Shown piece after piece: positions 8,577 to 40,126 of a DNA stretch of 64,000 nt. Origin of the DNA: an uncultured virus (IMG/VR IMGVR_UViG_2778261440_000004) (Duplodnaviria > Heunggongvirae > Uroviricota > Caudoviricetes). The notes under the pieces are model-generated. The model did no database searches and was not told where the DNA came from. It saw only the letters and a list, made by a program, of their open reading frames with translations. The DNA is taken from the IMG/VR virus record IMGVR_UViG_2778261440_000004, positions 1 to 64,000 of that record; one strand, 5' to 3'. Positions within the stretch are counted from its first letter, which is position 1, and every line of letters starts with the position of its first letter. A program made the translations under genes and the position numbers.

Positions 8577-9234
8577 GGAGATGAAAGAACAATTCTGGGA
8601 CTATGCTAAGAAATATACGAGTAATACACGCGAAACAAAACTTCGTGTAAATGATGAAAATAAAGAAGTGATCAAAGCTCTGTATCAATACTTTACTAAT
8701 GATCCAGCATTCTGGGATAATAAAACAGTAATGAATGAGCCATCATTAAGGAAAGGTATTTGGCTTGCCGGTAATACTGGTTCAGGTAAAACATTATTGT
8801 TAGAGATATTTTCAAAATATAAGCTTAAGCATGTTCCTTTTGAAATGATTTCCACTCGTGAAATGAATAGAAGGTTCAATTCTAAAGGACATGATGGTAT
8901 AGCTAAATACAGCTATGATTCTGTGAGAACTAATGCAACAAGTATTACTTCAATTAATCATGTTGCATTTGATGATCTTGGTAATGAGGAATCAGAGACA
9001 GTATATTTTAATAACATCATTTCAGTGATGGAACATGTCCTTGATGAAAGATACAGGCATTTTACCAAGCATCAATTAATCACTCATGTAACTACAAATA
9101 TGACTTTGGACCAAGTTGGAGAAACTTATGGAAATAGGATAAAATCAAGAGTTAACGAGATGTTCAACATTATATATCTCGGCTCAAAAGAAAACAGTAA
9201 AGACTACAGAATAACAACAAATTCAAACAATTAA
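8506..9234 (+). CDS. DnaC/IstB-like helicase loader ATPase
   Basis: Walker A GNTGSGKT, FDDLGNE, THVTTN, YGNRIKSRVNEMFN. Confidence 0.85.
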   Translation: MRTQASQEKQRKQVNVNPLSQTDKEMKEQFWDYAKKYTSNTRETKLRVNDENKEVIKALYQYFTNDPAFWDNKTVMNEPSLRKGIWLAGNTGSGKTLLLEIFSKYKLKHVPFEMISTREMNRRFNSKGHDGIAKYSYDSVRTNATSITSINHVAFDDLGNEESETVYFNNIISVMEHVLDERYRHFTKHQLITHVTTNMTLDQVGETYGNRIKSRVNEMFNIIYLGSKENSKDYRITTNSNN

Positions 9235-9238
9235 AATC

Positions 9239-9853
9239 ATGGAAAAAATCCAAATCGTAACAAATGGAAAAGTAATTGTGGCACCAGATATCACAATAAT
9301 TGAATTCAAAGAAATAATTGAAGAAGTGTTGAACCCAAACCTTCAAGAATTCACTGGGAAAGATGAAATATATTTCACATATGTAGAAGAACCTTTTCCT
9401 TGTTACACAATTCCAGAAGGCATTACCTATAATGATCTAATTGAAATTATAGGTAGGGAATACTCATTGAAGTATCGTGCAATCAATCAAGATGATTTTC
9501 TTTTAGAAGGTACTCGTCCTAAAGAGTACAATCATACATTGACAATAGATGAACTAAAAGGTATTGCTGATCAAATGTGTGAGCAAATTGATCAAAAAGA
9601 TAAGCTTGAGATAGAAAAGAAGCTAATAAGTAAAAGACTAGGAGATCAGATTACGGAATTAGACAGTAATATACATGATCTTTCTGTAAAACATAGAATG
9701 GGGTTTGAAACACGAGAATCAAATTGCAAGGTGAGGTTAAATTTTAAAGATGGTATGAAATATTACTATGATGCTGAATCTGATGAATTAATTACATCTG
9801 AAGAGTTAACAAGTGATGATTTCCAATTAAGAATTGATTATCAGCCACTATAA
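9239..9853 (+). CDS. Hypothetical protein
   Basis: 204-aa ORF in the operon. Confidence 0.6.
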   Translation: MEKIQIVTNGKVIVAPDITIIEFKEIIEEVLNPNLQEFTGKDEIYFTYVEEPFPCYTIPEGITYNDLIEIIGREYSLKYRAINQDDFLLEGTRPKEYNHTLTIDELKGIADQMCEQIDQKDKLEIEKKLISKRLGDQITELDSNIHDLSVKHRMGFETRESNCKVRLNFKDGMKYYYDAESDELITSEELTSDDFQLRIDYQPL

Positions 9854-10242
9854 TGAATTTACAATTGCCCTTAAAAAAGCAATGGTTTGAAATGACCAAA
9901 TCAGGTGTTAAGACTGAAGATTACAGGGCGTTAAATTGCTATTGGGCAAAGAGACTGGTTTACAATCTATCGGATGTTTTGCTTCATACAGGAAGAAACG
10001 ATATCAATAATTTCGTGAATGATGATTATGCCTACAAATTCCTTGCAAATCCGAAAAACCATTTTGGATTCAAGGAATTCACAACCAATGTAATGACATT
10101 GGGATACCCTAAAAACAATGACACATCAAGAATAATAAAGCTGCAACATGAAGGAATTGAAATTGGATTTGGAAAACCAGAATGGGGAGCAGATCCAGAT
10201 AAGCTTTACTTCATAATAAAGCATGGGTGTATAGTAATATGA
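9853..10242 (+). CDS. ASCH/PUA-like domain protein
   Basis: LPLKKQWFEMTKSGVKTEDYR; GKPEWGA. Confidence 0.72.
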   Translation: MNLQLPLKKQWFEMTKSGVKTEDYRALNCYWAKRLVYNLSDVLLHTGRNDINNFVNDDYAYKFLANPKNHFGFKEFTTNVMTLGYPKNNDTSRIIKLQHEGIEIGFGKPEWGADPDKLYFIIKHGCIVI

Positions 10243-10487
10243 AAGTAGAAGAGATTATTGAGAAACTTTGCAATCACGAAATAAGTAAGTCGGATGCAAT
10301 AGATAAGATTAAGGTAATAACTGATGGACTTAGAAACAATGAATCACTTGAGTTTGTAGTTGATGAATTTGGCTCTACCGTAGAAAATAATCACGGATAT
10401 TTGAACCTAATACTGCCTTACGAATACAGCAAGATTAAAAACAAAGTTTCTAAAGGTGATAGGGTTGATGTATCATTATTACTATAG
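10239..10487 (+). CDS. Hypothetical protein flanked by a 10-bp inverted repeat
   Basis: TATAGTAATA (10230-10239) / TATTACTATA (10477-10486). Confidence 0.55.
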   Translation: MKVEEIIEKLCNHEISKSDAIDKIKVITDGLRNNESLEFVVDEFGSTVENNHGYLNLILPYEYSKIKNKVSKGDRVDVSLLL

Positions 10488-10491
10488 CGAT

Positions 10492-10875
10492 ATGAACTTA
10501 GAAGAAGAAAAAAGAGAAAGTATAAAAGCTGATGCTAAAAAAGAGATAAGCAGACTTAAGGCAATGCTCGAATTAATAAAAGGTGATGACGATTGCGAAG
10601 CTTTATTAATTATTGATGGAGTTAAGCACGCCTTTTCAAGTTCTGGAATATTTACAGATACAATAAAGGCTGAAATAAGAGAAATTAATAAAGCGGTTGC
10701 TGGCTGGCGTTCATTTGATAAAGAAAAACCTTTGGACGGCAAAAAATACTACTACACACAAGATAATCAGTTTTTTAGAGGTATTTGGAATGAAGAAATG
10801 AAAGGTTTTTTGTTAGATGGATGTGGAGATAAAATGATTAGTAAAACCTGTGATTATTTCCACGCTTGCCACTAA
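10492..10875 (+). CDS. Modular hypothetical protein spanning a cassette junction at 10696
   Basis: MNLEEE... fused to VAGWRSFDKEKP...; its stop overlaps the TAAC core. Confidence 0.6.
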   Translation: MNLEEEKRESIKADAKKEISRLKAMLELIKGDDDCEALLIIDGVKHAFSSSGIFTDTIKAEIREINKAVAGWRSFDKEKPLDGKKYYYTQDNQFFRGIWNEEMKGFLLDGCGDKMISKTCDYFHACH

Positions 10876-10929
10876 CGGTTTGAATATGGTGTCGTAGTGA
10901 GGCACGAGCTATGCACTATATTTTGTGTT
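10874..10929. repeat. attC-like hairpin
   Basis: AAC...AATATGGTG.CGTAG loop CTATG.CACTATATT...GTT, 56 bp. Confidence 0.7.
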
Positions 10930-10962
10930 GGCGTAGTTTCGGATTATAAACGAAAACATACT

Positions 10963-11211
10963 ATGGATACAGAAACAGTAACAGTGCTTCCAAAAGGTGA
11001 AGACTTTGAGATTATAGTACGACACGACCAAAGCGGAAGTGCTTACGGAATAACTCTATCGAAGAACGCATACGAGCAATTACGCCAACACTTTGTTGTA
11101 GGGCGTAACGAACAGTTAGTTTGCCCTGATTGCAAGCATAAAGCAAGGATGCAGAATGGATTTATATGGTGCGAAAATGATGATTGTGGTGGTATTTATA
11201 GGGCAAACTAA
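10963..11211 (+). CDS. Small modular protein with a C-terminal Zn-finger (CPDC...CxxxxC)
   Basis: MDTETV...LRQHFVVGRNEQLVCPDC; reads across the GTT at 11095. Confidence 0.6.
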   Translation: MDTETVTVLPKGEDFEIIVRHDQSGSAYGITLSKNAYEQLRQHFVVGRNEQLVCPDCKHKARMQNGFIWCENDDCGGIYRAN

Positions 11212-11247
11212 TTGCCTACAACGGAAAAAAATAAATACAGTAACGAT

Positions 11248-11586
11248 ATGAAAGCAGAAACTTACAAATTATTCCTTGATGTTGAACAAGGAAACTTAAC
11301 TCCAGAGGAAGCACAAACGGAGTTATTGAACTTATTGAGTGTTACCCACCGTAAAGACCAGAAAACATACATAGGTGAAGAAATGCTCAAATGTAAATCA
11401 GGTGTCTATGAGGTGTTTTGGAAAAGTGGAGGTAGCTCAATTTCAGCAATAGGAATGACATATCTTGGGCAAAGATGGTTAGCACCAACTAACTGGACAA
11501 ACGGGAACGATGAACAAGACCCAACAGGTAGACTTCACACCCAATTGGACAGTATAGATAGAATTACTCTCCTTTATAGTGGGTAA
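11248..11586 (+). CDS. Modular hypothetical protein starting inside an attC-like hairpin
   Basis: ATG in the loop of hairpin 11220-11343; ELLNLLSV|THRK junction; stop in the GGGTAAC core. Confidence 0.62.
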   Translation: MKAETYKLFLDVEQGNLTPEEAQTELLNLLSVTHRKDQKTYIGEEMLKCKSGVYEVFWKSGGSSISAIGMTYLGQRWLAPTNWTNGNDEQDPTGRLHTQLDSIDRITLLYSG

Positions 11587-11818
11587 CTCCCGTCTAAAAA
11601 CACCACAGTTAACCAACTGTAAACCACCACTAAACCCTATAACTTTTCGAAAGTTTAAAAGTGATTTTTATAAAAATATGGCTATTAAGCATTCGATAAA
11701 ATTCACATGGTAAACTAATTAATCTATAGTGTTTCACACTTATTTACAACTGTTAACTTTCATATATATAGATAGTTATGTAATTTAGAGAGACGAATTA
11801 ATTATAACTCTCGACTAT

Positions 11819-12010
11819 ATGACTAGATTTATCAAAATCGGCTATTCCAGCCGTAAGAATGCCTATCGAAGAATTTTGTTTTTTCCTAAACTTAATCTTA
11901 CCGGAAAGTGGTTTCGAGAAGTAGGGTTTGAAATAGGAGACTCAGTAGAAGTCCAATGCTCTAATGGATGTATAACCATCAAAAGATTAGAGAATGGCCA
12001 AGACTCTTGA
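11819..12010 (+). CDS. symE: SymE-family (AbrB-fold) toxin
   Basis: PKLNLTGKWFREVGFEIGDSVEVQCSNGCITIK matches the SymE signature LxGxWLxxxGFxxG. Confidence 0.75.
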   Translation: MTRFIKIGYSSRKNAYRRILFFPKLNLTGKWFREVGFEIGDSVEVQCSNGCITIKRLENGQDS

Positions 12011-12749
12011 TGTACCTGTAGAATTGAGGCAATTCAATAAATTGTTTAACGAGTTGGCTTATTACAATGATGATTCTATCGTTTTTGACGATTTCCTTAC
12101 TTATACTATTTCAATGTTCATGTTCTATGAGCATAGAGATATTGATAACCTAAACAGAATTAAATCAAATTATAAAAATGGATTTAAAGGATTCTATGAG
12201 CTGTTTAAGGAGTTAATCAACGTAATGGGAAAAATGATTACAGATGAAGGTAGTTGGTATGACCCATTAGGAGATTATTATATGATTATTTCAAGCAGAG
12301 GTAAGAAATCATCAATGGGACAATTCTTCACACCTCCAGAGATTTGTGACGTTATGACGATGCTAAATTTCCCAAAAGATCAAACTATTAAATGTCAGAA
12401 AGTATCAGATCCTACATGTGGTTCCGGAAGGATACTTTTATCATTTCATGCATTTAATCCAGGGAATCTTGTATTTGGTGACGATCTAGATCCTATGTGT
12501 GCAAAAATGTCTGTTATTAATATGGTTATGCATGGTTGTGAAGGACAGGTTAATCATATGGATAGCCTAGCAGTGAAATGGTTTAAGGGTTGGAATATTA
12601 ATCCACTTATTCATAGACTAGGAATACCTAATGTTACACCTATTAAAAATGAAGATCATGCATTTTCTGTTGAGGTGTGGGAAGCTAAAAAGAATGAAGT
12701 TGAAGAAAAAGTACCAATTGTAAAACGTGGTCAATTGACTTTGTTTTAA
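11994..12749 (+). CDS. HsdM-like N6-methyltransferase-family protein lacking the NPPY motif
   Basis: GQFFTPPEIC, DPTCGSGRIL, GDDLD, MDSL; no [DNS]PP[YFW]. Confidence 0.72.
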   Translation: MAKTLDVPVELRQFNKLFNELAYYNDDSIVFDDFLTYTISMFMFYEHRDIDNLNRIKSNYKNGFKGFYELFKELINVMGKMITDEGSWYDPLGDYYMIISSRGKKSSMGQFFTPPEICDVMTMLNFPKDQTIKCQKVSDPTCGSGRILLSFHAFNPGNLVFGDDLDPMCAKMSVINMVMHGCEGQVNHMDSLAVKWFKGWNINPLIHRLGIPNVTPIKNEDHAFSVEVWEAKKNEVEEKVPIVKRGQLTLF

Positions 12750-12830
12750 CTTATTGAAGCTCACAACATTTTTGAGAAAGAGATTGATTGTTGATATGTG
12801 AAGTTGAATAGGTGTGGTCTGTGAGTATTA

Positions 12831-12864
12831 AAACCTCTAGTGAATTATCATTAGAGGTTTTTTA
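12831..12864 (+). terminator. Intrinsic terminator
   Basis: AAAACCTCTA...TAGAGGTTTTTT. Confidence 0.72.
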
Positions 12865-12898
12865 ATTTATCAATACACCGTAAATTTTTTTAAAAGAT

Positions 12899-13342
12899 AT
12901 GAGCTTTAAATTTGGTAAAACTAGCCTTGAAAGACTTTCGACTTGTCATCAAGATTTAGTTGATATTATGAACTTGGCCATTCAAGTAAGTTCTGTAGAT
13001 TTTGGGATTGCTGAAGGTCATAGATCTGTTGAAAAACAACAGCAGTATTTCAGAGAAGATAAAAGTAAAATTGATGGCATTACCAAATTAGGTAAGCACA
13101 ATTATCACCCTTCTTTAGCAGTTGATATATACCCTTATGTCAACGGAAAAGCTGAATGGGATAATGAACACTTATCGTACTTGAGTGGTGTAATCGAGGC
13201 TTGCGCAAACATTTTAGTGCAACAAGGCAGAATTGGCCACCGTATTCGTTGGGGAGGAAATTGGGATATGGATGGAGCCATATTGATCGATCAGTCATTC
13301 GATGATCGTCCTCATTTTGAACTAATAAAAGCATATTCATGA
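12899..13342 (+). CDS. Endolysin, peptidase M15 (L-Ala-D-Glu peptidase-like)
   Basis: EGHRS..Q, KHN...AVD, WGGNW, DRPHFEL. Confidence 0.9.
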   Translation: MSFKFGKTSLERLSTCHQDLVDIMNLAIQVSSVDFGIAEGHRSVEKQQQYFREDKSKIDGITKLGKHNYHPSLAVDIYPYVNGKAEWDNEHLSYLSGVIEACANILVQQGRIGHRIRWGGNWDMDGAILIDQSFDDRPHFELIKAYS

Positions 13343-17703: not shown

Positions 17704-18867
17704 ATGGCAGGAATAAAGAAGTACCTAGACAAAACGTGTGTTGAGTCAGCATATGAAAGAGTTAGAGAATGCTTTAATAGGTTTGATAAAGTTGCAGTTT
17801 CTTTTTCAGGTGGTAAAGATTCAACGGTTGTACTAAATATTGCTTATGATATTGCTAAAGAATACAACAGACTCCCATTAGAAGTAATATTCTTCGATGA
17901 AGAGGCTATACACCCTACCACCATTGATTATGTCAAAAGGGTTGCCGCAAATAAAGACTTTGACTTTAAATGGTATTGCATACCGGTAAAGCATAGAAAT
18001 GCATGTAGTAGGACTCAACCATGGTGGTATTGTTGGAATCCAGAAGAAAAGGATAAATGGATAAGGGATCTTCCTGAAAATGCAATCACTCACCTAAAAG
18101 GATTTAAAAAGGGAATGAATGTTCCTGAAGCATATCGATTAATCCATAAAGATTATGCAGGAACTATAGTTTCATTGTTGGGCATTCGTGCTGATGAAAG
18201 TCTCCGCAGATTACGTGTTGTAACACAGCGTAATGTTGAGAATTGGATAACAATGAGAGGTAAAAATGAAGGTTACAGAGCATTCCCTATTTATGACTTT
18301 GTAACAGAAGATGTATGGAATATTACAGCTCTTAAAAAATGGGACTACAACAAAACGTATGATGTTTTCAAAATGGCAGGTGTACCCCCAAGTAGCCAAA
18401 GAGTATGTCCTCCTTATGGAGAAGAACCATTAAGAGGAATTCAAGTATATGCTAAATGTTTCCCTGCCATGTGGCATAAAATGTTGAATAGAGTTCATGG
18501 AGTGGCTTCTGCTTGGAGATATTCAAATACAGATTTATACTCTGTTGGCTTAAAGGATCCTCCAAATGGGTTGTCATGGAAAAGATACCTCAGCTTAATT
18601 ATGGATTTATACCCCGATGATGATCAAATTGCTATTAAAAAGCAAGTGAATTACTTGATAAAGTATCACCACTCCAGAAGTAAAAAACCTATACATGATA
18701 GTGAAACAGATTTAATTACTGGTTGTAGTTGGAAGTTCTTGTGCCAGGTTGTTATAAAGGGTGATTTCAAAGGGAGAACATCAAACAATATGGCGGATAA
18801 AGCGGATAAAATAAGAGAGAGAAAAGGAATGTCATTAAGTAAAGCACAAAAATTATTCGGAAGATGA
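17704..18867 (+). CDS. PAPS-reductase-family protein (IbrA/YbdN-like), copy 1
   Basis: VSFSGGKDS PP-loop, FFDEE, GIRADESLRR, FPIYDF. Confidence 0.88.
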   Translation: MAGIKKYLDKTCVESAYERVRECFNRFDKVAVSFSGGKDSTVVLNIAYDIAKEYNRLPLEVIFFDEEAIHPTTIDYVKRVAANKDFDFKWYCIPVKHRNACSRTQPWWYCWNPEEKDKWIRDLPENAITHLKGFKKGMNVPEAYRLIHKDYAGTIVSLLGIRADESLRRLRVVTQRNVENWITMRGKNEGYRAFPIYDFVTEDVWNITALKKWDYNKTYDVFKMAGVPPSSQRVCPPYGEEPLRGIQVYAKCFPAMWHKMLNRVHGVASAWRYSNTDLYSVGLKDPPNGLSWKRYLSLIMDLYPDDDQIAIKKQVNYLIKYHHSRSKKPIHDSETDLITGCSWKFLCQVVIKGDFKGRTSNNMADKADKIRERKGMSLSKAQKLFGR

Positions 18868-19382
18868 TAACACAACCACTTAACAAGCTCATTTGGATTG
18901 ATAGATCTAAATTACATCCAAATGACTATAATCCAAATTACGTAGCCCCAGAGGAGTTAAAACTATTAAAGAAGAGTATTATTGAAACCGGTTGGACTCA
19001 GCCTATTGTTGTTGATAAGCATTACGTTATAATTGATGGGTTTCACCGTTATACTGTATCTGCAGATCAAGATGTATTCAAACTTACTAAAGGTAAAGTT
19101 CCTGTAGTAATAATTGAAAATATTGATGAAGCACATAGGAGAATTGCAACAGTAAGACATAATCGTGCTAGAGGTACCCATGGGGTTATTGAGATGGCAA
19201 AGATTCTTAGACAACTTGCTGAGGAACTTAATTTGTCAAAAGAAGAAATAATGTTTCGACTTGGTATGGATTCAGAAGAAGTAGATAGACTTATTACCAG
19301 AGAGGGAATGCCGGCTTTAATAAGTAAGAACTCAGAAGGATTTAGTAAGTCATGGACTCCAAACAGAAAAAAACCACGTTAA
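18864..19382 (+). CDS. ParB-like IbrB/YbdM-family protein, copy 1
   Basis: YNPN, GWTQPIV, IIDGFHRY, TVRHNRARGTH. Confidence 0.88.
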   Translation: MITQPLNKLIWIDRSKLHPNDYNPNYVAPEELKLLKKSIIETGWTQPIVVDKHYVIIDGFHRYTVSADQDVFKLTKGKVPVVIIENIDEAHRRIATVRHNRARGTHGVIEMAKILRQLAEELNLSKEEIMFRLGMDSEEVDRLITREGMPALISKNSEGFSKSWTPNRKKPR

Positions 19383-21245: not shown

Positions 21246-22985
21246 ATGACATTGTTATCTCCTCTAATCCTTGAAGGGTTAGACTTGTTTTGTGGTGCTG
21301 GTGGTACCACAACAGGAATTGAATTTGCCAATATTGAAGGGGTTAAAATTGCTAAAGTTATTGGATGCATTAACCATGATCCATTAGCAATATCAAGCCA
21401 CAGTGCAAATCATCCTGAGACGAAACATTTTATCGAAGACATTAGATTATTTGATACATCACTTTTACCTAAGAAGTCCGTTAATGCTAAAACATTTCTT
21501 TGGGCTTCGTTGGAGTGTACAAATTTCAGTAATGCTAAAGGGGGGCAATCGCGTGATGCTGACTCCAGAACTTTAGCTAATCATCTATTTAGATACATTG
21601 AATACTGGAAACCTGATTACATTCTGATTGAAAATGTCCGTGAGTTTATGGCCTGGGGACCACTCCGGGTTAAGTGTTCTAAAAAACATAATGATCGATC
21701 AGACTTAGCAATTAATAAGGATGGTCAATATGTTATGATTCCGGAGTCAAGAACAGCAGGTGTTGATTATCAGAGATGGGTGAAGAAAATCAAAGATTAT
21801 GGGTATAACTATGATAAGCGTTTGTTAAATGCAGCTGACTTTGGTGCATATACTTCACGTATCAGATACTTTGGAATGTTTGCTAAGAAAGGACTTCCAA
21901 TGGCATGGCCACAACAAACGCATGCTAAGAAACCTATAGGTCATTTAAAACCATGGAAGCCTGTTAAGGATGTTCTGGACTTAAATGATCATGGTGCATC
22001 TATTTTTTCAAGAAAAAAGCCATTATCTGAAAATACACTAAAGAGAATATATGCCGGTCTAGTGAAATATGTAGCTGAAGGTGATGAATCATTCATTAAG
22101 CAATATAATGGTGGTGGAAATGATCAACGAGTTTACTCTAATGATAGACCTATTACTGCTATATCAACAAACAACAGACATGCAGTTGTAACGCCTCATT
22201 ATATTGTAGACTATTACGGAAATGGAAGAACATACACCGGTGACTTACCATTAGGAACAATTCTAACTAAAGATAAATTCTCGTTCGTAACACCTGAGTT
22301 TTTACAAAAGTACCATGGTAATGGTGAAAACCTTGTTCCTCTAAATGGTCCTGCTAGTTCATTAACTACAAAAGATNGGTTGGCCATAATAAATGCACAA
22401 TGGCTAGATAAACAGTATTCAGGTGAATCAAACCATCAAAGTATAGATAAACCATCCGGCACTATTGTTACAAACGATAAACATGCTTTGTTTTCAGCTG
22501 AGCAACCATATTTACTTCAAACTAATTTCAATAATAATCCTAAGTCTATTAATGAGCCATCTGCAGCTATACTAGCATGTAGAAAAGCTCAGTATTTAGT
22601 TAATCCACAATTTACTAGCAAAGGATCCTCTATTGATAACCCATGTTTTACATTGATTGCAAGAATGGATAAAAGACCACCATCAATAGTTACAACAGAA
22701 CATATTGAATATGGTTACCCTGCAATTATTGTATTTGATGAAGATTCTGAAATCATGAAGAAAATAAAATACTTCATGGCGTACTTTGGAATTGCTGATA
22801 TCAAAATGCGTATGCTTAAAATAGTTGAGCTAAAACGTATTCAAGGGTTTCCTGATGACTATGTATTACACGGTACTCAGGCAGATCAAAAGAAGTTCAT
22901 TGGAAATGCTGTACATTCTATAATACCTAAAATGTGGGTAGAAGCTATTTATTCTTCGTTAAGTAGGAAAATGGATTTATCTTAA
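21246..22985 (+). CDS. C5-cytosine DNA methyltransferase
   Basis: DLFCGAGG, SLECTNFS, ENVREF, RIRYF, RIQGFP, IGNAV; repetitive TRD; one N base at 22377. Confidence 0.92.
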   Translation: MTLLSPLILEGLDLFCGAGGTTTGIEFANIEGVKIAKVIGCINHDPLAISSHSANHPETKHFIEDIRLFDTSLLPKKSVNAKTFLWASLECTNFSNAKGGQSRDADSRTLANHLFRYIEYWKPDYILIENVREFMAWGPLRVKCSKKHNDRSDLAINKDGQYVMIPESRTAGVDYQRWVKKIKDYGYNYDKRLLNAADFGAYTSRIRYFGMFAKKGLPMAWPQQTHAKKPIGHLKPWKPVKDVLDLNDHGASIFSRKKPLSENTLKRIYAGLVKYVAEGDESFIKQYNGGGNDQRVYSNDRPITAISTNNRHAVVTPHYIVDYYGNGRTYTGDLPLGTILTKDKFSFVTPEFLQKYHGNGENLVPLNGPASSLTTKDXLAIINAQWLDKQYSGESNHQSIDKPSGTIVTNDKHALFSAEQPYLLQTNFNNNPKSINEPSAAILACRKAQYLVNPQFTSKGSSIDNPCFTLIARMDKRPPSIVTTEHIEYGYPAIIVFDEDSEIMKKIKYFMAYFGIADIKMRMLKIVELKRIQGFPDDYVLHGTQADQKKFIGNAVHSIIPKMWVEAIYSSLSRKMDLS

Positions 22986-25760: not shown

Positions 25761-26200
25761 TCGAGAAAATAAAAGGTGATAGCCCTGATGTATACCGGTT
25801 GATAGCACCGTATGCAATGGATAGGAAATACATTCGAATGAATGACAATGTTATTACTACAAGCCCAAGTGATACATGGTACCTATTACTAGGTGATAAA
25901 AATGAGCTATTAGCATTTTACGCTGTATTTGAACACAAGAATAATAGCATTAAAGCTCACTCCTATTTACCTGTAAACATTGATTGGAAAAAAGGTCTAA
26001 ATATCCTATTAAGTGAAATTGTTTCCGATTTCAAATCATCTGATCACAATAGACTTTATACTTTCGGGAAAGATGAGTACCTCAGCATTTACAAGAAATT
26101 AGGATTTAAAATTTCAAACCGAAGAAAAGAATGGCACACACTAGAATTGGTAAAACGTACAAGGAAAAAAACGTCTACGAAGCAGCCAAAGAAAGAATAA
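25757..26200 (+). CDS. GNAT-like acetyltransferase
   Basis: LLAFYAV..., GLNILL, IYKKLGF C-terminal GNAT motif. Confidence 0.55.
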   Translation: MIEKIKGDSPDVYRLIAPYAMDRKYIRMNDNVITTSPSDTWYLLLGDKNELLAFYAVFEHKNNSIKAHSYLPVNIDWKKGLNILLSEIVSDFKSSDHNRLYTFGKDEYLSIYKKLGFKISNRRKEWHTLELVKRTRKKTSTKQPKKE

Positions 26201-27447
26201 AGTTTCTTTTCAATGAGTTCGAACAGATCGTTGTTTCATTTTCAGGAGGTAAAGACAGTGGTATTGTTCTGAATATGGTTCTTGAGTATGCTAATGATAA
26301 CTCTATGCTTGACAAGGTGTGTGTGTATCATATGGATTACGAAGCCCAATATCAGGCAACTACAGATTTTGTTACTGAAACTTTCAAAAGTCTACCCAAA
26401 CAAGTCTCAAAATATTGGGTATGTCTTCCAATAAAAGCTCAATGTAGTACATCAATGTTCCAAACGTATTGGCAACCTTGGAAGAAAGAAGACCGGGATA
26501 AGTGGTGTAGAGAACTACCAGAGAACTGTATAAATGAAGATAACTTCCCATTTGATTTTGATTATGAGATTTCTGATTATGACTTTAATCTCAAATTCGC
26601 TAAAGCTTTATCAAAGGAAAAACACACATGTTTCCTAATAGGTATTAGAACTCAAGAAAGTCTTCATAGATATAAAGCAGTAACAAAATTAGAGGACAAC
26701 AACACTTATAAAGGAATTAACTACACAACTACAATAAATTCAAATTGTATCAATGCTTATCCAATATATGATTGGCTTGTAGATGATGTATGGATTGCAT
26801 ATGGTCGTTTTAATTGGAAGTATAACAATATTTATAACCTTATGCATTTAGCAGGCCTTACACCTCATCAAATGAGAGTGGCAAGTCCATTTAATGATGC
26901 TGCACAAGAAAGCTTGAAACTATATAAAGCTTTAGACCCTAATAATTGGGGTAAATTGATTGGTCGCGTTAATGGAGTGAACTTCACAGGTCTTTATGGT
27001 GGTACCACTGCAATGGGATGGAATAGTATTTCTAAACCTGATCATTTTACGTGGAAGGAGTACATGTATTTTCTGCTTGAAACATTACCTGAAGATATAC
27101 GTGATAACTACCTCACTAAGCTAAAAACATCTTTTGCATATTGGTTAGAAAAAGGTGGGGCTCTTCCTGTTGAAACATTCAATGAATTACCATCTGATTT
27201 AGAATTTGAAGATTTGGGAAAGCCTCAGACAAAGAGGAAATACACTCAAGAATATAGAGTAGTAAAATTCAAAGAATATCTAGATGAGATTGAAATTAAG
27301 AATCCAAACCTTCTACCTACCTATAAAAGAATGTGCATAGCTATTATGAAAAACGATACCAGTTGTAAAACTCTTGGATTCGGACAAACAAAAGCTGAGC
27401 TGCAAAGAAGAAAAGATATTATGACAAAATACAAATCACTATTATGA
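26131..27447 (+). CDS. PAPS-reductase / DUF3440 protein (IbrA/YbdN-like), copy 2
   Basis: VSFSGGKDS, DYEAQY, GIRTQESLHR, YPIYDW, MRVASPF, RVNGVNF. Confidence 0.9.
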   Translation: MAHTRIGKTYKEKNVYEAAKERIKFLFNEFEQIVVSFSGGKDSGIVLNMVLEYANDNSMLDKVCVYHMDYEAQYQATTDFVTETFKSLPKQVSKYWVCLPIKAQCSTSMFQTYWQPWKKEDRDKWCRELPENCINEDNFPFDFDYEISDYDFNLKFAKALSKEKHTCFLIGIRTQESLHRYKAVTKLEDNNTYKGINYTTTINSNCINAYPIYDWLVDDVWIAYGRFNWKYNNIYNLMHLAGLTPHQMRVASPFNDAAQESLKLYKALDPNNWGKLIGRVNGVNFTGLYGGTTAMGWNSISKPDHFTWKEYMYFLLETLPEDIRDNYLTKLKTSFAYWLEKGGALPVETFNELPSDLEFEDLGKPQTKRKYTQEYRVVKFKEYLDEIEIKNPNLLPTYKRMCIAIMKNDTSCKTLGFGQTKAELQRRKDIMTKYKSLL

Positions 27448-27959
27448 AAAGCCCTGTATATAATGTTATCCCAGTACCAATTGATAAGATTAGAGCAAAT
27501 AGTTATAATCCAAATAGTGTAGCTCCTCCGGAGATGAAACTTCTTGAAACATCAATTTGGGAGGATGGGTATACAATGCCTGTTGTTTGCTATTACATAC
27601 CTGATGATGACATGTATGAAATTGTAGATGGGTTTCACCGGTATACTGTTCTTAAAACGAGTAAAAGGATTTATGAACGTGAAGATGGTAAGCTTCCTGT
27701 TGTAGTTATTGATAAAGACGAAAGTAATAGAATGGCTTCCACTATACGTCACAACCGGGCCAGAGGAACTCATGATATTTCTCTAATGGTAAATATTGTT
27801 GCAGAACTTAAGAAGGCTGGACAAGGTGATGCTTGGATAATGAAGCATATTGGAATGGATGCAGATGAACTACTTAGACTTAAACAACTAAGCGGTTTGA
27901 CAGAATTATTTAAAGATAAAGACTTTTCAAAATCATGGGAGTTAATAAGGAATCAATAG
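27444..27959 (+). CDS. ParB-like IbrB/YbdM-family protein, copy 2
   Basis: YNPNSVAPPEMKLL, DGYTMP, VDGFHRY, STIRHNRARGTH. Confidence 0.9.
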   Translation: MKSPVYNVIPVPIDKIRANSYNPNSVAPPEMKLLETSIWEDGYTMPVVCYYIPDDDMYEIVDGFHRYTVLKTSKRIYEREDGKLPVVVIDKDESNRMASTIRHNRARGTHDISLMVNIVAELKKAGQGDAWIMKHIGMDADELLRLKQLSGLTELFKDKDFSKSWELIRNQ

Positions 27960-28921: not shown

Positions 28922-29272
28922 GTGGAAAGATTAACACTAAAGGATTTAGCGATAGAACACGATTATTATTGCAGTGGAAGTAATTACTACAGTAATGAGC
29001 CAGAAATGAGCTTTGAAACTTTTGCTGAGTTTTATGAAGAGTTTCACGATGCAGATGTAGATATGAACTTAGTTTTTAGATGGGATTTGCGCAAGAGTGA
29101 GGAAAGCGAAATACATTACTTGGAAATATTTATGATGCAACAACGAAGAGGGATATTTAAACCTATACAAATAGAGTCGTTTTATGAAAGCGATATTGAA
29201 CTTTTTGTTAAATACTTGAAGCCACATATTGAAAAACTAAAAGCGATTTGGAAACCGTTTGAATTAAATTAG
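28922..29272 (+). CDS. Conserved phage hypothetical protein
   Basis: HDYYCS.SNYY, DVDMNLVFRWD, QQRRG motifs. Confidence 0.65.
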   Translation: MERLTLKDLAIEHDYYCSGSNYYSNEPEMSFETFAEFYEEFHDADVDMNLVFRWDLRKSEESEIHYLEIFMMQQRRGIFKPIQIESFYESDIELFVKYLKPHIEKLKAIWKPFELN

Positions 29273-34228: not shown

Positions 34229-34353
34229 AACGTGCCTAGTATAAAAGCTGGCGGGGAATGAACGGCAAACACTTTCCCGAAAGCTCAAAACTTACTTAAA
34301 CATCCGAAGCGGTCAAAAAGACACTGCAACCCCGCTTGATTTTATACTGTGTT
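34229..34353. repeat. attC-like hairpin
   Basis: AAC..AGTATAAAA..GCGGGG ... CCCCGC..TTTTATACT..GTT. Confidence 0.75.
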
Positions 34354-34369
34354 GTGGTGCGTTTTTATT

Positions 34370-34570
34370 ATGGGAAAAGGATTTGCAATTTTAATTTGGG
34401 ACGATTGGGGTTCAGGATTGGTCAGAATAAACCCACGACTGTTAGACAATGGGCACACTGACATATATGGCAACCCAAACAACTGGTTTCCCTACAAAAC
34501 GGAAGAACAGAAGCAAGAAATGATTAAAGAATTGGTTGGTGATAGTAAATACTATGTTGTGATTGACTAA
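34370..34570 (+). CDS. Cassette-borne small hypothetical protein
   Basis: Single ORF filling GTTGTGGTGCGTTT...AAATGCACCACAAC. Confidence 0.65.
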   Translation: MGKGFAILIWDDWGSGLVRINPRLLDNGHTDIYGNPNNWFPYKTEEQKQEMIKELVGDSKYYVVID

Positions 34571-34579
34571 ATGCACCAC

Positions 34580-34665
34580 AACGGCCTTGATAAAAAATCG
34601 GGCGCAAACCTGAACCTTGGAAACTGAGCGCAAACGCTGCCTGCGCCTGTTTTTTATCTTTTGTT
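34580..34665. repeat. attC-like hairpin
   Basis: AAC..GATAAAAAA..GGGCGCA ... TGCGCCT.TTTTTTATC..GTT. Confidence 0.75.
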
Positions 34666-34686
34666 GGCAGCAGTTAATTCAAGATT

Positions 34687-35523
34687 ATGGAAACATTGAA
34701 ATTACATCACATTGCACCTTACTTGCCTTATAAGTTAAAGTGCCTAACAGTTGATAAAGGTGAAATAGTAATATCTGAGCTTAACGCTGCATATTCTGAC
34801 AACTCCTATACGTTTATGAATATCGTAGAATCTTATAAAGGATTTGAAGACATTAAACCATTATTGAAACCCATGAGTGCTTTTGATAATGGTTATGTAG
34901 CAGAATTAGCTAGATATGTATCTACTATTGACGATAAGTACACTATTGAAAGTGCTTGGACAATGATTGAGGAACGAATATCAAAGCCTTTGAATATGCC
35001 TTACGTTATTGTTAAGAGATTACTCCGATGGAAATTTGATGTATTTGGATTAATTGATAAAGGTCTTGCTTTGAATTCAGACTTATTTGTTAATGATCAT
35101 ATTAAAGAGGAAGATTCCGTCTACATTAGGTCAGACAATTACCCTAATACTATCGATCAATTCAAAGCAATTGTTTCACCGTATCAGTTTATTGGTAATG
35201 AAGTTCGGCCTCAAGATCCTGACGAACACAAGTATGATGAGTGTATAGATAAAACACAATCTAATTCAGATATGGTTGAAAAGAAAACATGGCCAGAATT
35301 CAGGAGTACTGGTCTAGTTTTGATTATTAATCAATTATTACATGTTTTTGGTTGGTCCATTGTTTTTGAAATAGAAAATGATGAAGTGAGAAGTGTTTAT
35401 CCTGCAAGGGTTAAATTTAGAGGGTTTGATAACAAGACTACTTCTTACAATTATCAAAAAGTTAGCGAATACCTAAAAGAACATGCAAAAGAGCTGCATA
35501 ATGAAGTAAAAGATCACATTTAA
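34687..35523 (+). CDS. Bacteroidota-phage-type hypothetical protein (probably two fused modules)
   Basis: APYLPYKL, IKPLLKPMS, FDVFGLIDKGLA; second module WPEFRSTGL...PARVKFRGF. Confidence 0.65.
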   Translation: METLKLHHIAPYLPYKLKCLTVDKGEIVISELNAAYSDNSYTFMNIVESYKGFEDIKPLLKPMSAFDNGYVAELARYVSTIDDKYTIESAWTMIEERISKPLNMPYVIVKRLLRWKFDVFGLIDKGLALNSDLFVNDHIKEEDSVYIRSDNYPNTIDQFKAIVSPYQFIGNEVRPQDPDEHKYDECIDKTQSNSDMVEKKTWPEFRSTGLVLIINQLLHVFGWSIVFEIENDEVRSVYPARVKFRGFDNKTTSYNYQKVSEYLKEHAKELHNEVKDHI

Positions 35524-35538
35524 ATGTAATTTCATCTT

Positions 35539-35913
35539 ATGAAATATGAATTGATCCACAATGAAAAACAAGAAGGTGATATATCCGGAGTAGATTTATT
35601 ACCAATTGAAACTTTCGTGTCTGTTGATATAAAAGAATATGCTCAACATTTTGTGTTTTCTGAATTAAGAGAAGGTAGCATTTGGACCTACACAATTGAA
35701 CTTTTAATTTCTGGCCGAAATTGCAAATCAATAGTTAAGGTAACTAACTTTACCCATCCATTGGGAAATGACGAGTCATATAGGACTTACGGGGGTGGTA
35801 CTCAATTAAACTGGATAATCGATGTAGAGGATGATATGATATATTACTTGCAAAATTTAGCAGCTGAAGCTTTGAATTATTTCATAAGTGAAACAATGCC
35901 AGCCAGTTTTTAA
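35539..35913 (+). CDS. Hypothetical protein
   Basis: ORF in operon. Confidence 0.55.
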   Translation: MKYELIHNEKQEGDISGVDLLPIETFVSVDIKEYAQHFVFSELREGSIWTYTIELLISGRNCKSIVKVTNFTHPLGNDESYRTYGGGTQLNWIIDVEDDMIYYLQNLAAEALNYFISETMPASF

Positions 35914-36041
35914 AAGCAAAGGAGAATAAAACAGAATCATATCAAAAAATTGATTATATCTATAAGAAGTTGAAATACTTGGCAGATTTTTAGATTACTG
36001 GGGCACATCAAACGTTAATTTCCTTGGAAAAAGGAGGTGAA

Positions 36042-36194
36042 ATGGTTCTAGCAAGTCAAAACCCGCAAGAGTCAAAAGAAATTTTCAAGCGATTTACAGG
36101 CCGTGAAATTGATCTTATTCCAGATGGTGAAAGTGTTGGTTTCATTGTTAAGTTGATTCCAGATAAAAAATGTACACAATCGAAAAGCAAATAG
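36042..36194 (+). CDS. Small hypothetical protein (50 aa, below the ORF-track cutoff)
   Basis: MVLASQNPQESKEIF...; preceded by AGGAGGTG. Confidence 0.4.
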   Translation: MVLASQNPQESKEIFKRFTGREIDLIPDGESVGFIVKLIPDKKCTQSKSK

Positions 36195-36343
36195 CTGATA
36201 AGTGGCATTTCGAAGCTTACGAATATGAACTCGAAATTGCTATAGCTAAGTGCAACGAATTGTTTGAAGCATCGCCCGGACGTTACCGCGTTTTCTCTAC
36301 TAGAACCAAGAAAAATGTATACAATGTAACCAACGACTTTTAA
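36170..36343 (+). CDS. Small hypothetical protein (57 aa, below the ORF-track cutoff)
   Basis: MYTIEKQIADKWHFEAYEY...TNDF. Confidence 0.5.
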   Translation: MYTIEKQIADKWHFEAYEYELEIAIAKCNELFEASPGRYRVFSTRTKKNVYNVTNDF

Positions 36344-36439
36344 ACGTTTCTGAATTCTGCATTGATGCTTTACAATTAACAGACTTCATTAAACAGGTGA
36401 CTATTATTTGGATTTTTTTTTCAAAAAACACATCCATTA

Positions 36440-36455
36440 TACACATAATTGTGTA
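36440..36455. promoter_or_regulatory. Operator copy 4
   Basis: TACACAtaatTGTGTA followed by a TAATTTAG -7 variant and the CTCTC motif. Confidence 0.68.
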
Positions 36456-36507
36456 ATTTAGCGACACAATTAACAACTCTCAACTATAACTCTTAATTAT
36501 TATTCTT

Positions 36508-36729
36508 ATGAAATCTCACTCAAGAGCTAACATTCTTGATGTTATTCAAAAAGTTCAAGAAGCTCAAATTCAAAACGAAGGTTTATCTCCTCATTTCAAT
36601 AGAGAAAAATACTGTGGAACTTGTTTGTCACATGATAAAGCAGCTCACCCTGAAACAGATAAGTGCTTTCATTGTGATTCTGATAATTGGATAAGTCAAC
36701 AAGAGTATAATTCAAGATTAGCTAAGTAA
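36508..36729 (+). CDS. Small Zn-finger-like protein
   Basis: CGTC...CFHC. Confidence 0.6.
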   Translation: MKSHSRANILDVIQKVQEAQIQNEGLSPHFNREKYCGTCLSHDKAAHPETDKCFHCDSDNWISQQEYNSRLAK

Positions 36730-37079
36730 TGGGACAACCAAAAAACGGTGAACTGTGGCTTTTAGAGTTTAAAAGCGATGGTGCTAAAACAGCTATGTTC
36801 TACAACAATGGACATTGGTATTCACGTGATAATCATTCTACAGCATGGGATGAGCAATTTGAACTTGTTGAAAAGCTTAAGGATGCTCCAAATAACAAAC
36901 CAAAAGACAAAGAAGTCTGGCTAGTAGAAAATAAAGGAAGGATGGCATTTGCTGTTTACAACGCCAATTCAAAAAGATTATACACAACATTCACTAAAGA
37001 TGGAGATCTATCATTCGAGCTTAGTAAAACTACTAGTCCCGTTAAACTACTTTTTAAAAGCTTGGAGGATGTGATATGA
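36729..37079 (+). CDS. Hypothetical protein with an internal repeat
   Basis: PKNGELWLLE / PKDKEVWLVE duplication. Confidence 0.6.
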   Translation: MGQPKNGELWLLEFKSDGAKTAMFYNNGHWYSRDNHSTAWDEQFELVEKLKDAPNNKPKDKEVWLVENKGRMAFAVYNANSKRLYTTFTKDGDLSFELSKTTSPVKLLFKSLEDVI

Positions 37080-37363
37080 TGATTTTTAAATTTGATATCA
37101 ATCTAAAAGTATACTCATCTAATGTTTTGCCGGTTCCATCTGCAGATGATACAAAATATAGTGTAGATGTGGTAATAGTAGATGAAGATAATATGTCTGG
37201 TCTAGCATTTTATTCATTTTCTAAAGGTGAATGGAAATTTCATACAGATACAATGTGTGATGATCATGAAAATGGTAAACCAAAACAATTCTGGTGGTAC
37301 TATCCCCCTATCCTTAAAACAACTGGAAAAGCTCAGTTGATTGTAAATCCAAAACATGTTTAA
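37076..37363 (+). CDS. DUF551-like hypothetical protein
   Basis: LP...S.DV....AFY....W...WYYP pattern. Confidence 0.5.
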   Translation: MMIFKFDINLKVYSSNVLPVPSADDTKYSVDVVIVDEDNMSGLAFYSFSKGEWKFHTDTMCDDHENGKPKQFWWYYPPILKTTGKAQLIVNPKHV

Positions 37364-37586
37364 AATGGATCATTTGACTATAAAGATAAATGGTATTGAG
37401 CTAGAGGTTGGTTACAAATTCATAACTGGCACACCGAATAGTGAATGGACTGGTGATGGAGCTACGCCAGGTATTCCGGATAGCGTAGAAATACAAGAAG
37501 TGTACCTACAAGACGAAGACATAACAAGCTTAATTAACAAAGAATCATTTTCCTCAATTGAGGAAGAGGTTTTGAAAATGCATTGA
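37356..37586 (+). CDS. Hypothetical protein
   Basis: PG.PDSVEI..V....DIT motif. Confidence 0.6.
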   Translation: MFKMDHLTIKINGIELEVGYKFITGTPNSEWTGDGATPGIPDSVEIQEVYLQDEDITSLINKESFSSIEEEVLKMH

Positions 37587-37775
37587 ATGATGGATAAAGA
37601 ATCTCAATTTGTAGAACTTATGCGAACTTCAAACAGAATAGCAGTTGCTAAAAACCACTGCAAAATTAATCCTGTATTCTCAGATAAAATTAAACCATTT
37701 AAAAATCGTACATACAATAGATTGACTCAAATGCAAGAGTCAATAGGCGTGCAAGTAAATGAGTTGTATTGGTAG
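37587..37775 (+). CDS. Hypothetical protein ending at a cassette core
   Basis: Stop followed by TTATTGCTGCCAAC. Confidence 0.5.
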   Translation: MMDKESQFVELMRTSNRIAVAKNHCKINPVFSDKIKPFKNRTYNRLTQMQESIGVQVNELYW

Positions 37776-37786
37776 TTATTGCTGCC

Positions 37787-37876
37787 AACCTGTTCTAATA
37801 AACACATGTGGCGCAACTCACGCCACTTTAATAGGATGCAAAACGACAACTTGCGCCGTTGGGTTTATTTATTGTT
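37787..37876. repeat. attC-like hairpin
   Basis: AAC..AATAAAC..GGCGCAA ... TTGCGCC..GTTTATT..GTT. Confidence 0.7.
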
Positions 37877-39728: not shown

Positions 39729-40089
39729 TAGGTACAAGAAAGGAACTGTAGGAAGTTGGGTGACAAGATTCAATAATAATGAGTTAAAGATTGAATTCAT
39801 GCATGATAAGCTTATTGAGAACGGATATATTCGAACTGATCAAGGATATATTCAGCCTCCTGACAAAACTATTGCATTGAATAAGATTAGATCTCTATCT
39901 AATGACATTGTAAACCCTCAATGGTTCAGTAATAAAGTAAGCTCAATATTATTATTGAATGAAAGTGAATTCATAGAACTGCGTGATATGTATGTGGAAG
40001 ATTATGAAGGGATAGAAAATTCTAATTTCCTAATGCTTGAGTACGGTGAAGATGATGTGTTTGTAATTCTTAATAGTGATAGGTTATGA
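39664..40089 (+). CDS. Hypothetical protein
   Basis: ORF in operon. Confidence 0.55.
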   Translation: MLVQVLNVKDAFGQFLKSLAYSRYKKGTVGSWVTRFNNNELKIEFMHDKLIENGYIRTDQGYIQPPDKTIALNKIRSLSNDIVNPQWFSNKVSSILLLNESEFIELRDMYVEDYEGIENSNFLMLEYGEDDVFVILNSDRL

Positions 40090-40126
40090 GTAAGTCTATT
40101 AATCTTTAACACATAAACTTCCATAC

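Follow-up and report, generated by a model that had tools for sequence, protein, structure and literature searches.

The locus described here raises the question of whether small phage proteins can be assembled from exchangeable modules at DNA sites that are themselves translated. It comprises three small open reading frames (ORFs), A (10492-10875), B (10963-11211) and C (11248-11586), in a cassette array inside the early operon of a temperate phage, and it lies in a stretch of 64,000 nt (the window; positions 1 to 64,000 of IMG/VR record IMGVR_UViG_2778261440_000004) with roughly 33% GC, within contig C13 of the 4.49-Mb genome of a marine Bacteroidota bacterium. Searches of Pfam and PHROG left A, B and C without any family. 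Our conclusion, to which we give a probability of roughly 0.6, is that the region at 10.4-11.6 kb belongs to an integron-like cassette array that lacks an integron integrase and is carried by a temperate Bacteroidota phage. We establish the anatomy of the units, the switching of partners between modules, the breakpoints between related loci and the phase rule that the junctions follow.

The original prediction for this DNA had proposed four segments with complementary ends, three ORFs that cross a GTT as an in-frame valine codon, and stops that fall in or just before an AAC. All four end pairs are present: 10696-10710/10862-10876 matches at 11 of 15 positions by Watson-Crick pairing and at 13 of 15 with G.T, counted from the letters; 10927-10935/11081-11089 matches at 9 of 9, extending to 14 nt at 93%; the third segment has an outer pairing of 8/8 (11095-11102/11215-11222) and an inner one of 12/12 (11116-11127/11200-11211); and 11341-11356/11572-11587 matches at 14 of 16. 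ORFs A, B and C all cross their GTT in frame 0 as Val, and their TAA stops end 1, 11 and 1 nt, respectively, before the last base of AAC. The 10927-11089 segment does have complementary ends, as proposed, but a leader-bearing hairpin unit (B_N, the N-module of B) describes it better than a cargo cassette. B_N carries CAA in place of the TAA of other 3' arms and is followed by a 5-nt spacer, ACTTT, thus keeping the frame into whichever cassette comes next. The cassette at 11095-11222 folds end to end with z = -3.84 (0/200 shuffles as good). Across the whole window, perfect inverted repeats are in no excess over shuffled sequence (126 versus 117.5 of at least 9 nt, 34 versus 34.0 of at least 10 nt, 4 versus 2.4 of at least 12 nt), yet 5 of the 34 of at least 10 nt and 2 of the 4 of at least 12 nt fall within 10400-11700, a span of 1.3 kb. 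The strongest argument against chance is the comparative one, in which the same upstream module is followed by different cassettes with differing self-complementary ends, and we conclude that the complementary ends are real and beyond chance.

Partner switching is clearest in ORF B. A homolog search found 153 proteins, and the module counts that follow come from the 120 that were listed. The B_N module occurs in 98 of these at 80-94% identity and is followed, after ..LRQHF, by at least 40 unrelated clusters of tails, the first residue of the tail being Val in 94 of the 98. Conversely, the Zn-ribbon tail of B occurs in 20 listed proteins with at least 14 N-partners other than B_N, and its four Cys residues are invariant in 18 sequences. 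An AlphaFold model of B (mean pLDDT, the predicted local distance difference test score, of 80) shows three strands and a helix followed by the Zn ribbon, with pLDDT falling to 65 in the junction block (residues 41-50), so that the junction is modelled as a lower-confidence linker joining two folded parts. Foldseek gave zero matches for this model in the PDB at E <= 0.001. Two homologs, P0093 and P0128, lack a stop after ..YRAK/..YRVN in the Zn-ribbon cassette and continue past it; the extra tail of P0093, QLIKQATEL, reappears as the last part of an unrelated tail, that of P0071 (..KQLIKQATDL), a recurrence that hints at three-module chains or a translated spacer.

At the DNA level we compared 12 loci carrying the B N-module, drawn from metagenomes, IMG/VR, metagenome-assembled genomes and a Pelobium prophage. 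All 66 pairs of loci align over B_N. Similarity ends exactly at the last T of GTT in 30 of them and within 10 nt of the end of GTT in 48; it ends 6 nt earlier in 5 pairs, every one involving locus L006, and more than 12 nt further on in 13, whose downstream cassettes are related. Two loci (L005 and L017) diverge straight after ...CCCTACAACG, and both contain an "empty" hairpin, GTTGTAGGGC-N15-GCCCTACAAC, read as VVGQNRSLRPTT. At the other end of a unit, a contig from another study matches cassette C_C as far as its AAC at 11587 and is then unlike the window. Breakpoints thus occur at AAC as well as at GTT, which indicates that hairpin/leader units move independently of both neighbours. The arms of the alternative cassettes covary, the 5' arm with the 3' arm near the stop, as GTTGTAGG/CCTACAAC, GTTAGTGG/CCACTAAC, GTTAGCGGT/ACCGCTAAC, GTTATGCCT/AGGCATAAC, GTTGTAAAAC/GTTTTACAAC and GTTAGCGGA/TCCGCTAAC. 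When arms were set from the ORF alone, cognate pairing at positions 4-10 averaged 4.5 of 7, compared with 2.62 for 84 non-cognate pairs.

ORFs A and C switch less cleanly. Six of 12 homologs of A match residues 4-71 only and then carry a short tail (..AVAGKKNKWE), and the other six match residues 60/69-127 only, behind short unrelated leaders (..LNIPV/VSGW.., the slash marking the junction here and below). Relatives of the cassette A_C read VSGW, from which peptide we infer an arm GTTAGTGGC that would pair with GCCACTAAC. Among 12 near homologs of C, 10 are collinear and 2 switch partner, with the break at residues 30-35: P0143 matches residues 30-111 behind another N-part, and P0144 matches residues 1-35 ahead of another C-part. 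The C-part of ORF C is a widespread small domain (598 representatives) that often stands alone. A search of viral contigs for the DNA of relatives (A, C and the Zn-ribbon cassette with other N-partners) gave 0 usable loci, and an order-level genome search for the same relatives gave 0 of 67 other genomes. Because these DNA searches yielded no usable relatives, the exchange points of A and C are placed from protein sequences. Cultured phages gave no match to A or B and one 32% match to C, from a Citrobacter phage, and the genome containing the window holds no copies of the junction peptide motifs or cassettes beyond the array. The expectation that homologs would switch partners exactly at the Val (GTT) codon is therefore strongly upheld for B; for A the switch falls within about two codons but not exactly at G/TT, and for C it is seen in 2 of 12 near homologs only.

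A random junction frame across loci would have spoken against module exchange. Outside the B family, GTT is in frame 0 in 8/8 read-through units. In the cultured Polaribacter phage P12002L, gp37 (..LLNLHV/VGSS..), gp59 (..ALFING/VGKC..) and gp60 (..AFSLNG/VGCS..) also carry GTT in frame 0 (3/3), making 11/11 independent read-through units; eight self-starting cassettes have phases 2, 2, 1, 0, 2, 1, 2 and 2. Seven B-family cassettes, whose phase is fixed by B_N, were left out of this count, together with a doubtful unit at 39783 in the window (phase 2) and one at 470 in locus L012, where ATG overlaps GTT. By our own arithmetic, 11/11 has a probability of about 6e-6 under equal phases and about 5e-4 if phase 1 is discounted, since arms such as GTTAG introduce a stop when read in it.

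The related loci also define the anatomy of a unit. In 40.4 kb we counted 23 canonical units against 5.1 expected, and locus L019 holds six or seven within 3 kb. Typical arms read 5'-GTT R N6 G TT and AA T N6 Y AAC-3', with G at position 11 opposite T. Most units hold a whole ORF with its own ATG 19-47 nt past GTT, contrary to the suggestion that the system differs from integrons in that integron cassettes carry whole ORFs; module fusion is consequently a regular sub-class of one system and not a separate system. The 15 nt ahead of each GTT follow the consensus TTnnnnTATAnnnnT, which 11326-11340 of the window matches, and pair with a segment shortly after the preceding AAC, such that the junction order is AAC, a few nt, hairpin, 1-4 nt, GTT. 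A hairpin of at least 11 pairs ends 0-3 nt upstream of 20 of 32 unit GTTs, compared with 19% of 393 control GTTs. The recurrent L-x-x-x-x/V peptides (LRQHF/V, LNIPV/V, LSIAD/V, LRQTD/V and LNLLS/V) are the translated 3' strand of this hairpin plus GTT. ORFs B and C, like five more read-through ORFs from L011, L012 and L019, have their ATG in its loop, in agreement with the proposal that the hairpin upstream of GTT supplies start codon and N-terminus: C starts in the loop at 11248, and B by the same geometry. All 26 units examined have the same orientation as their ORFs.

A second array in the window, at 34.2-38.2 kb, is listed with the first in Table 1. Its long arm pair has near-identical counterparts in L019, where they close a 90-aa ORF. 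In seven or eight other loci the B leader unit is preceded by AACGTGCCGAGT, and an identical spacer motif, AACGTGCCTAGT, lies at 34229-34243 of the window, where it comes after an orphan 3' arm (..TTGCAACTAAC); no 5' partner for this arm was found. Loose helix scans (at least 11 of 13 or 15 pairs) were swamped by background (162 found, 120 expected), and a strict scan with spans up to 2.5 kb gave 7 against 2.75 expected, with 3.24 per 64 kb genome-wide. Given this background, candidate units of the strict scan at 39783-40110, 36135-36334 and elsewhere are not claimed. The hairpin within the N-module of A sits in conserved coding sequence and could be due to chance. In the host genome (G000), perfect GTTR..GT/..AT..YAAC arm pairs lie at C25:162541-164620, C28:13871-15782 and C1:200153-201564, two such pairs being adjacent on C25; no plus-strand ORF of at least 50 aa fills any of these units, and one 63-aa ORF overlaps the start of the second C25 unit.

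Table 1. ORFs, cassettes and hairpins of the two arrays, in window coordinates
Feature	Coordinates	Strand	Details
ORF A	10492..10875	+	127 aa; alternative ATG 10468; N-module aa 1-68/71 and start-less C-cassette from Val69
Hairpin inside N-module of A	10600..10694	+	arms 10600-10614 / 10680-10694; perfect 12 bp core; ends 1 nt ahead of GTT 10696; z -2.75
Cassette A_C	10696..10876	+	5' arm GTTGCTGGCTGGCGT, 3' arm ACGCTTGCCACTAAC; stop TAA 10873-10875 inside CTAAC
Spacer (L-type) hairpin	10883..10922	+	between AAC at 10876 and GTT at 10927; z -2.04, 8/200 shuffles as good
Leader unit B_N	10925..11091	+	arms GTGTTGGCGTAGTT / AATTACGCCAACAC around ATG 10963 and 43 codons; found in 12 loci
ORF B	10963..11211	+	82 aa; beta-beta-beta-alpha N-domain, linker at junction, Zn ribbon
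Cassette B_C (Zn ribbon, start-less)	11095..11222	+	outer stem 11095-11102 / 11215-11222; inner stem 11113-11127 / 11200-11214; stop TAA 11209-11211
Hairpin upstream of C_C	11230..11336	+	arms 11230-11244 / 11322-11336, 12/15; ATG 11248 in loop
ORF C	11248..11586	+	112 aa; 31-aa leader and cassette C_C
Cassette C_C	11341..11587	+	arms GTTACCCACCGTAAAG / CTTTATAGTGGGTAAC, G.T at position 11; stop TAA 11584-11586 inside GTAAC
Whole-ORF cassette, second array	34351..34582	+	arms GTTGTGGTGCGTTT / AAATGCACCACAAC; ATG 34370; 66 aa
Spacer hairpin, second array	34589..34658	+	between AAC 34582 and GTT 34663; z -3.25, 0/200 shuffles as good
Arm pair, second array	34663..37789	+	GTTGGCAGCAGTTAA ... TTATTGCTGCCAAC; spans 3.1 kb of small ORFs

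In sum, each cassette runs from 5'-GTTR to YAAC-3' with complementary, cassette-specific ends of 8-15 nt, and a hairpin separates the AAC of one cassette from the next GTT. We propose that a cassette, once circularised, would present an R helix, a bubble, an L hairpin and a variable loop, as in attC, and that the exchange route would be site-specific recombination of such folded single-stranded DNA by a recombinase. There are two types of cassette. One carries a whole ORF with its own ATG; the other is start-less and has an ATG and leader or N-domain ahead of it in the loop of the upstream hairpin, from which translation would pass through the 3' strand of the hairpin (L-x-x-x-x) and over GTT (Val) into the cassette to end at the TAA in the 3' arm. 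Since GTT is always in phase 0, any leader could be joined to any start-less cassette, and exchange at the feet of the helices would therefore shuffle protein modules; fused proteins would presumably be produced in this way.

Several observations weigh against this reading or blur it. Four of 10 B-family cassettes pair poorly when their arms are set from the ORF alone (2, 2, 2 and 4 of 7), L016 has hybrid arms (5' GTTGTAGG with 3' CCACTAAC), and similarity runs 29-41 nt into Zn cassettes that otherwise differ. The exchange point of ORF A, placed by protein sequences only, lies 3-8 nt inside the arm (VAG/W) and not at G/TT. The hybrid arms, the similarity that reaches into the Zn cassettes and the junction of A all fit homologous exchange, and a single G/TT crossover of the integron type does not predict breakpoints at AAC. 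The minimum-energy fold of 11223-11340 lacks the 11230-11244/11322-11336 pairing. Distant homologs of C often keep a C_N-like helix ahead of the C-part without the Val, and as the near homologs are mostly collinear, C is the weakest case of switching, with N and C parts that usually travel together. In several cases B_N is followed by a short tail that looks as if it were not meant to be translated (VMLSCRIIK, VSGCPASQI), and counts of fused proteins are biased because protein searches retrieve only in-frame products. Four Logan contig sets showed no circles, joints, indels or variants, and a loose end at 11587 only; these being contigs, absence is not implied. As to a recombinase, the integron-integrase model TIGR02249 had five matches in the genome and none above its cut-off (best 78.5 bits versus 265), which indicates no integron integrase, and one related viral fragment of 22.9 kb is without a tyrosine recombinase. 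Lastly, the conserved G.T at stem position 11, read on the coding strand, suits an RNA helix as well as it suits single-stranded DNA.

This last point favours a reading in which the helices belong to the polycistronic early mRNA as long-range stems around cistrons that serve processing, stability or translational coupling; breakage at the stem feet would then be apparent only, recombinants that retain both arms being the ones that survive. Position 11 has G in the 5' arm opposite T in the 3' arm in 15 units of related loci, all free of mismatches at positions 4-10 and with both flanking pairs present, and this is a wobble for the coding strand alone; every unit has the orientation of the genes, 5' arms lie 19-47 nt upstream of ATGs, and 3' arms contain the stop. 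We nevertheless consider this reading unlikely, as selection alone would be too imprecise to end similarity at a 3-nt GTT in 30 of 66 pairs, and at AAC. "Empty" hairpins exist (L005/L017), a read-through ORF would lose its message to a processing cut at the 5' arm, and an Rfam search of 9000-13000 returned zero families at E <= 1, which is weak evidence. Moreover, attC sites have the same conserved GTTR/YAAC feet and R-L-L-R layout, and an integron integrase recombined one P12002L site, according to PMC9892861.

We regard as similarly unlikely that relaxed homologous or microhomology recombination, driven by a Sak4-type annealase and an exonuclease, acts at short conserved linkers with the inverted arms as a side feature. 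The window does encode a Sak4-like annealing protein and a PD-(D/E)XK nuclease-like protein, different Zn-type cassettes have a conserved stretch of 30-40 nt (GGGCGAAGCGAACAGTTAGTTTGC) in common, and both the hybrid arms of L016 and the junction of A inside its arm are what such exchange would leave. However, most junctions have only GTT or AAC in common (30 of 66 pairs), which is too short for annealing, and this model leaves open why the two ends complement each other cassette by cassette and why the phase is fixed. Inversion between the arms, switching C-termini in the manner of a shufflon or Gin, has even less to recommend it and is very improbable. The arms are indeed inverted repeats in coding sequence, as are the sfx sites in the coding sequence of pilV, but none of the 26 units is oriented against its ORF, 11095-11222 read as its reverse complement gives, by our own reading, VVGN and then a stop, and no strand-changing joints were seen in contigs, on which grounds we rejected this model.

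The surroundings of the array are those of a phage. The window encodes a tyrosine integrase (1-1302), DnaD/DnaC-like loaders, ParB-like proteins, PAPS-reductase/DUF3440 proteins, methylases, a capsid protein and tail proteins in addition to the annealase and nuclease. The prophage integrase is its sole tyrosine recombinase, with a weak Pfam match (23.4 bits). Among cultured phages, nucleotide relatives are found only in Cellulophaga and Flavobacterium phages, and the matching regions lie outside the A-C array. Just downstream of the array, past a 230-nt non-coding stretch, a 63-aa ORF with a SymE toxin domain (type I toxin-antitoxin; E 2e-11) overlaps the start of an N6-adenine methylase-like ORF (11819-12749). 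Two PAPS-reductase/DUF3440 genes, at 17704-18864 and 26131-27444, may be part of a duplicated DNA-modification module; the first is directly followed by a ParB-N-domain gene (18864-19379), the second by an ORF (27444-27956) with no Pfam match. A single N lies at 22377 inside a C-5 cytosine methylase ORF.

Integrons are known for shuffling whole genes, and in-frame junctions would allow protein domains to be shuffled as well, a route to rapid protein innovation so far linked to eukaryotic exons or to a few dedicated inversion switches. We suggest, tentatively and at somewhat less than even odds, that Bacteroidota phages have a prokaryotic counterpart of phase-compatible exon shuffling, in which translated, folded sites are exchanged site-specifically by a non-IntI recombinase to yield combinatorial small early proteins throughout phage populations; these are perhaps host-takeover or anti-defence factors. 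Such a system would account for part of the abundance of small mosaic ORFans in phage early regions, and would supply rules for spotting the boundaries of modules by their GTTR...YAAC arms, their L-x-x-x-x-V junctions and the TAA of the 3' arm. As the architecture is also present in the cultured phage P12002L, the idea can be tested at the bench.

Among known systems, shufflons (PMC5430464) and the Gin/Cin systems invert a few segments within one clone by means of a dedicated recombinase. Like the present array, they join a constant N-part to alternative C-segments at an in-frame site. In the array, by contrast, there is no sign of inversion, and the alternative segments are distributed among many phage genomes. 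The PeSLs of T4-type phages are used in homologous exchange of whole genes. They are conserved promoter-terminator stem-loop motifs, and as described in PMC2839356 and PMC4122927 they resemble the array in bordering small phage genes of obscure function in plastic regions with repeated stem-loops proposed for modular shuffling. Compared by description, the present arms differ from PeSLs in being inverted rather than direct, cassette-specific, footed by GTT and AAC, and able to lie inside reading frames; PeSLs repeat the same promoter and stem-loop motif directly between genes, and such repeats are not what we find, the arms being different from one another and inverted.

The closest likeness is to integrons and to clusters of attC sites lacking integron integrases (CALINs). 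Integron cassettes have a split-site property, the 5' end pairing with the inverse core at the cassette's own 3' end, and the same pairing is found here, together with co-oriented small cassettes, boundaries at GTT (R') and AAC (R'') with an L''/L' hairpin between them, unpaired spacers of about 1-6 nt, and a stop codon often within ...TAAC. The junction layout has the attC architecture R''(..AAC)-L''-loop-L'-R'(GTT..), foldable as a single strand. Judged by this layout, at least four junction sites can be placed in 10.7-11.6 kb and further ones in 34.2-38.2 kb, without IntI, the array being a candidate CALIN; no attI or Pc was identified at the array, neither having been searched for systematically. 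PMC9892861 reports predicted attC sites (CALINs) in phages including P12002L and recombination of P12002L_attC2 by IntI1, and the P12002L_attC1 primer sequence given there maps to a junction, AAC-g-hairpin-att-GTT, between two methyltransferase cassettes, so that one published "attC" is a junction of exactly the present type. The P12002L_attC2 sequence, of about 70 nt, occurs twice in P12002L (NC_028924), at 29170-29245 and 37200-37270, each copy downstream of (antisense to) a DNA-modification gene cassette and the letters differing after a common ..CCGTTGTTA.

The array nonetheless differs from integrons. The R helices are 8-15 nt and cassette-specific where integrons have a generic 7-nt core, a G.T pair is conserved at stem position 11, no IntI is present, and breakpoints fall at AAC and not at GTT alone. 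Start codons and leaders lie in hairpin loops and the junction is in phase 0, by which protein modules would be exchanged and not only genes. Class 1 integrons offer a parallel: ORF-11 at attI1 can provide an upstream start for translation across the junction, and neighbouring cassette ORFs can become fused (PMC4670013, PMC8876359). Such cassette fusions are, in the former account, rare accidents through loss of attC (PMC4670013), whereas here the site is intact, is itself translated (L-x-x-x-x-V) and keeps a fixed phase across unrelated cassette families. The literature searched, bioRxiv supplements and subscription journals lying outside it, describes neither in-frame module junctions nor long cassette-specific arms for phage cassette arrays. 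Because it has no IntI, has long cassette-specific arms, breaks away at both AAC and GTT and shows some exchanges inside arms, the array is not a member of the integron family, although it works like integron cassettes. Attachment sites resembling attC had already been published for P12002L; what the present array adds to them is a junction that is in frame, translated and locked in phase.

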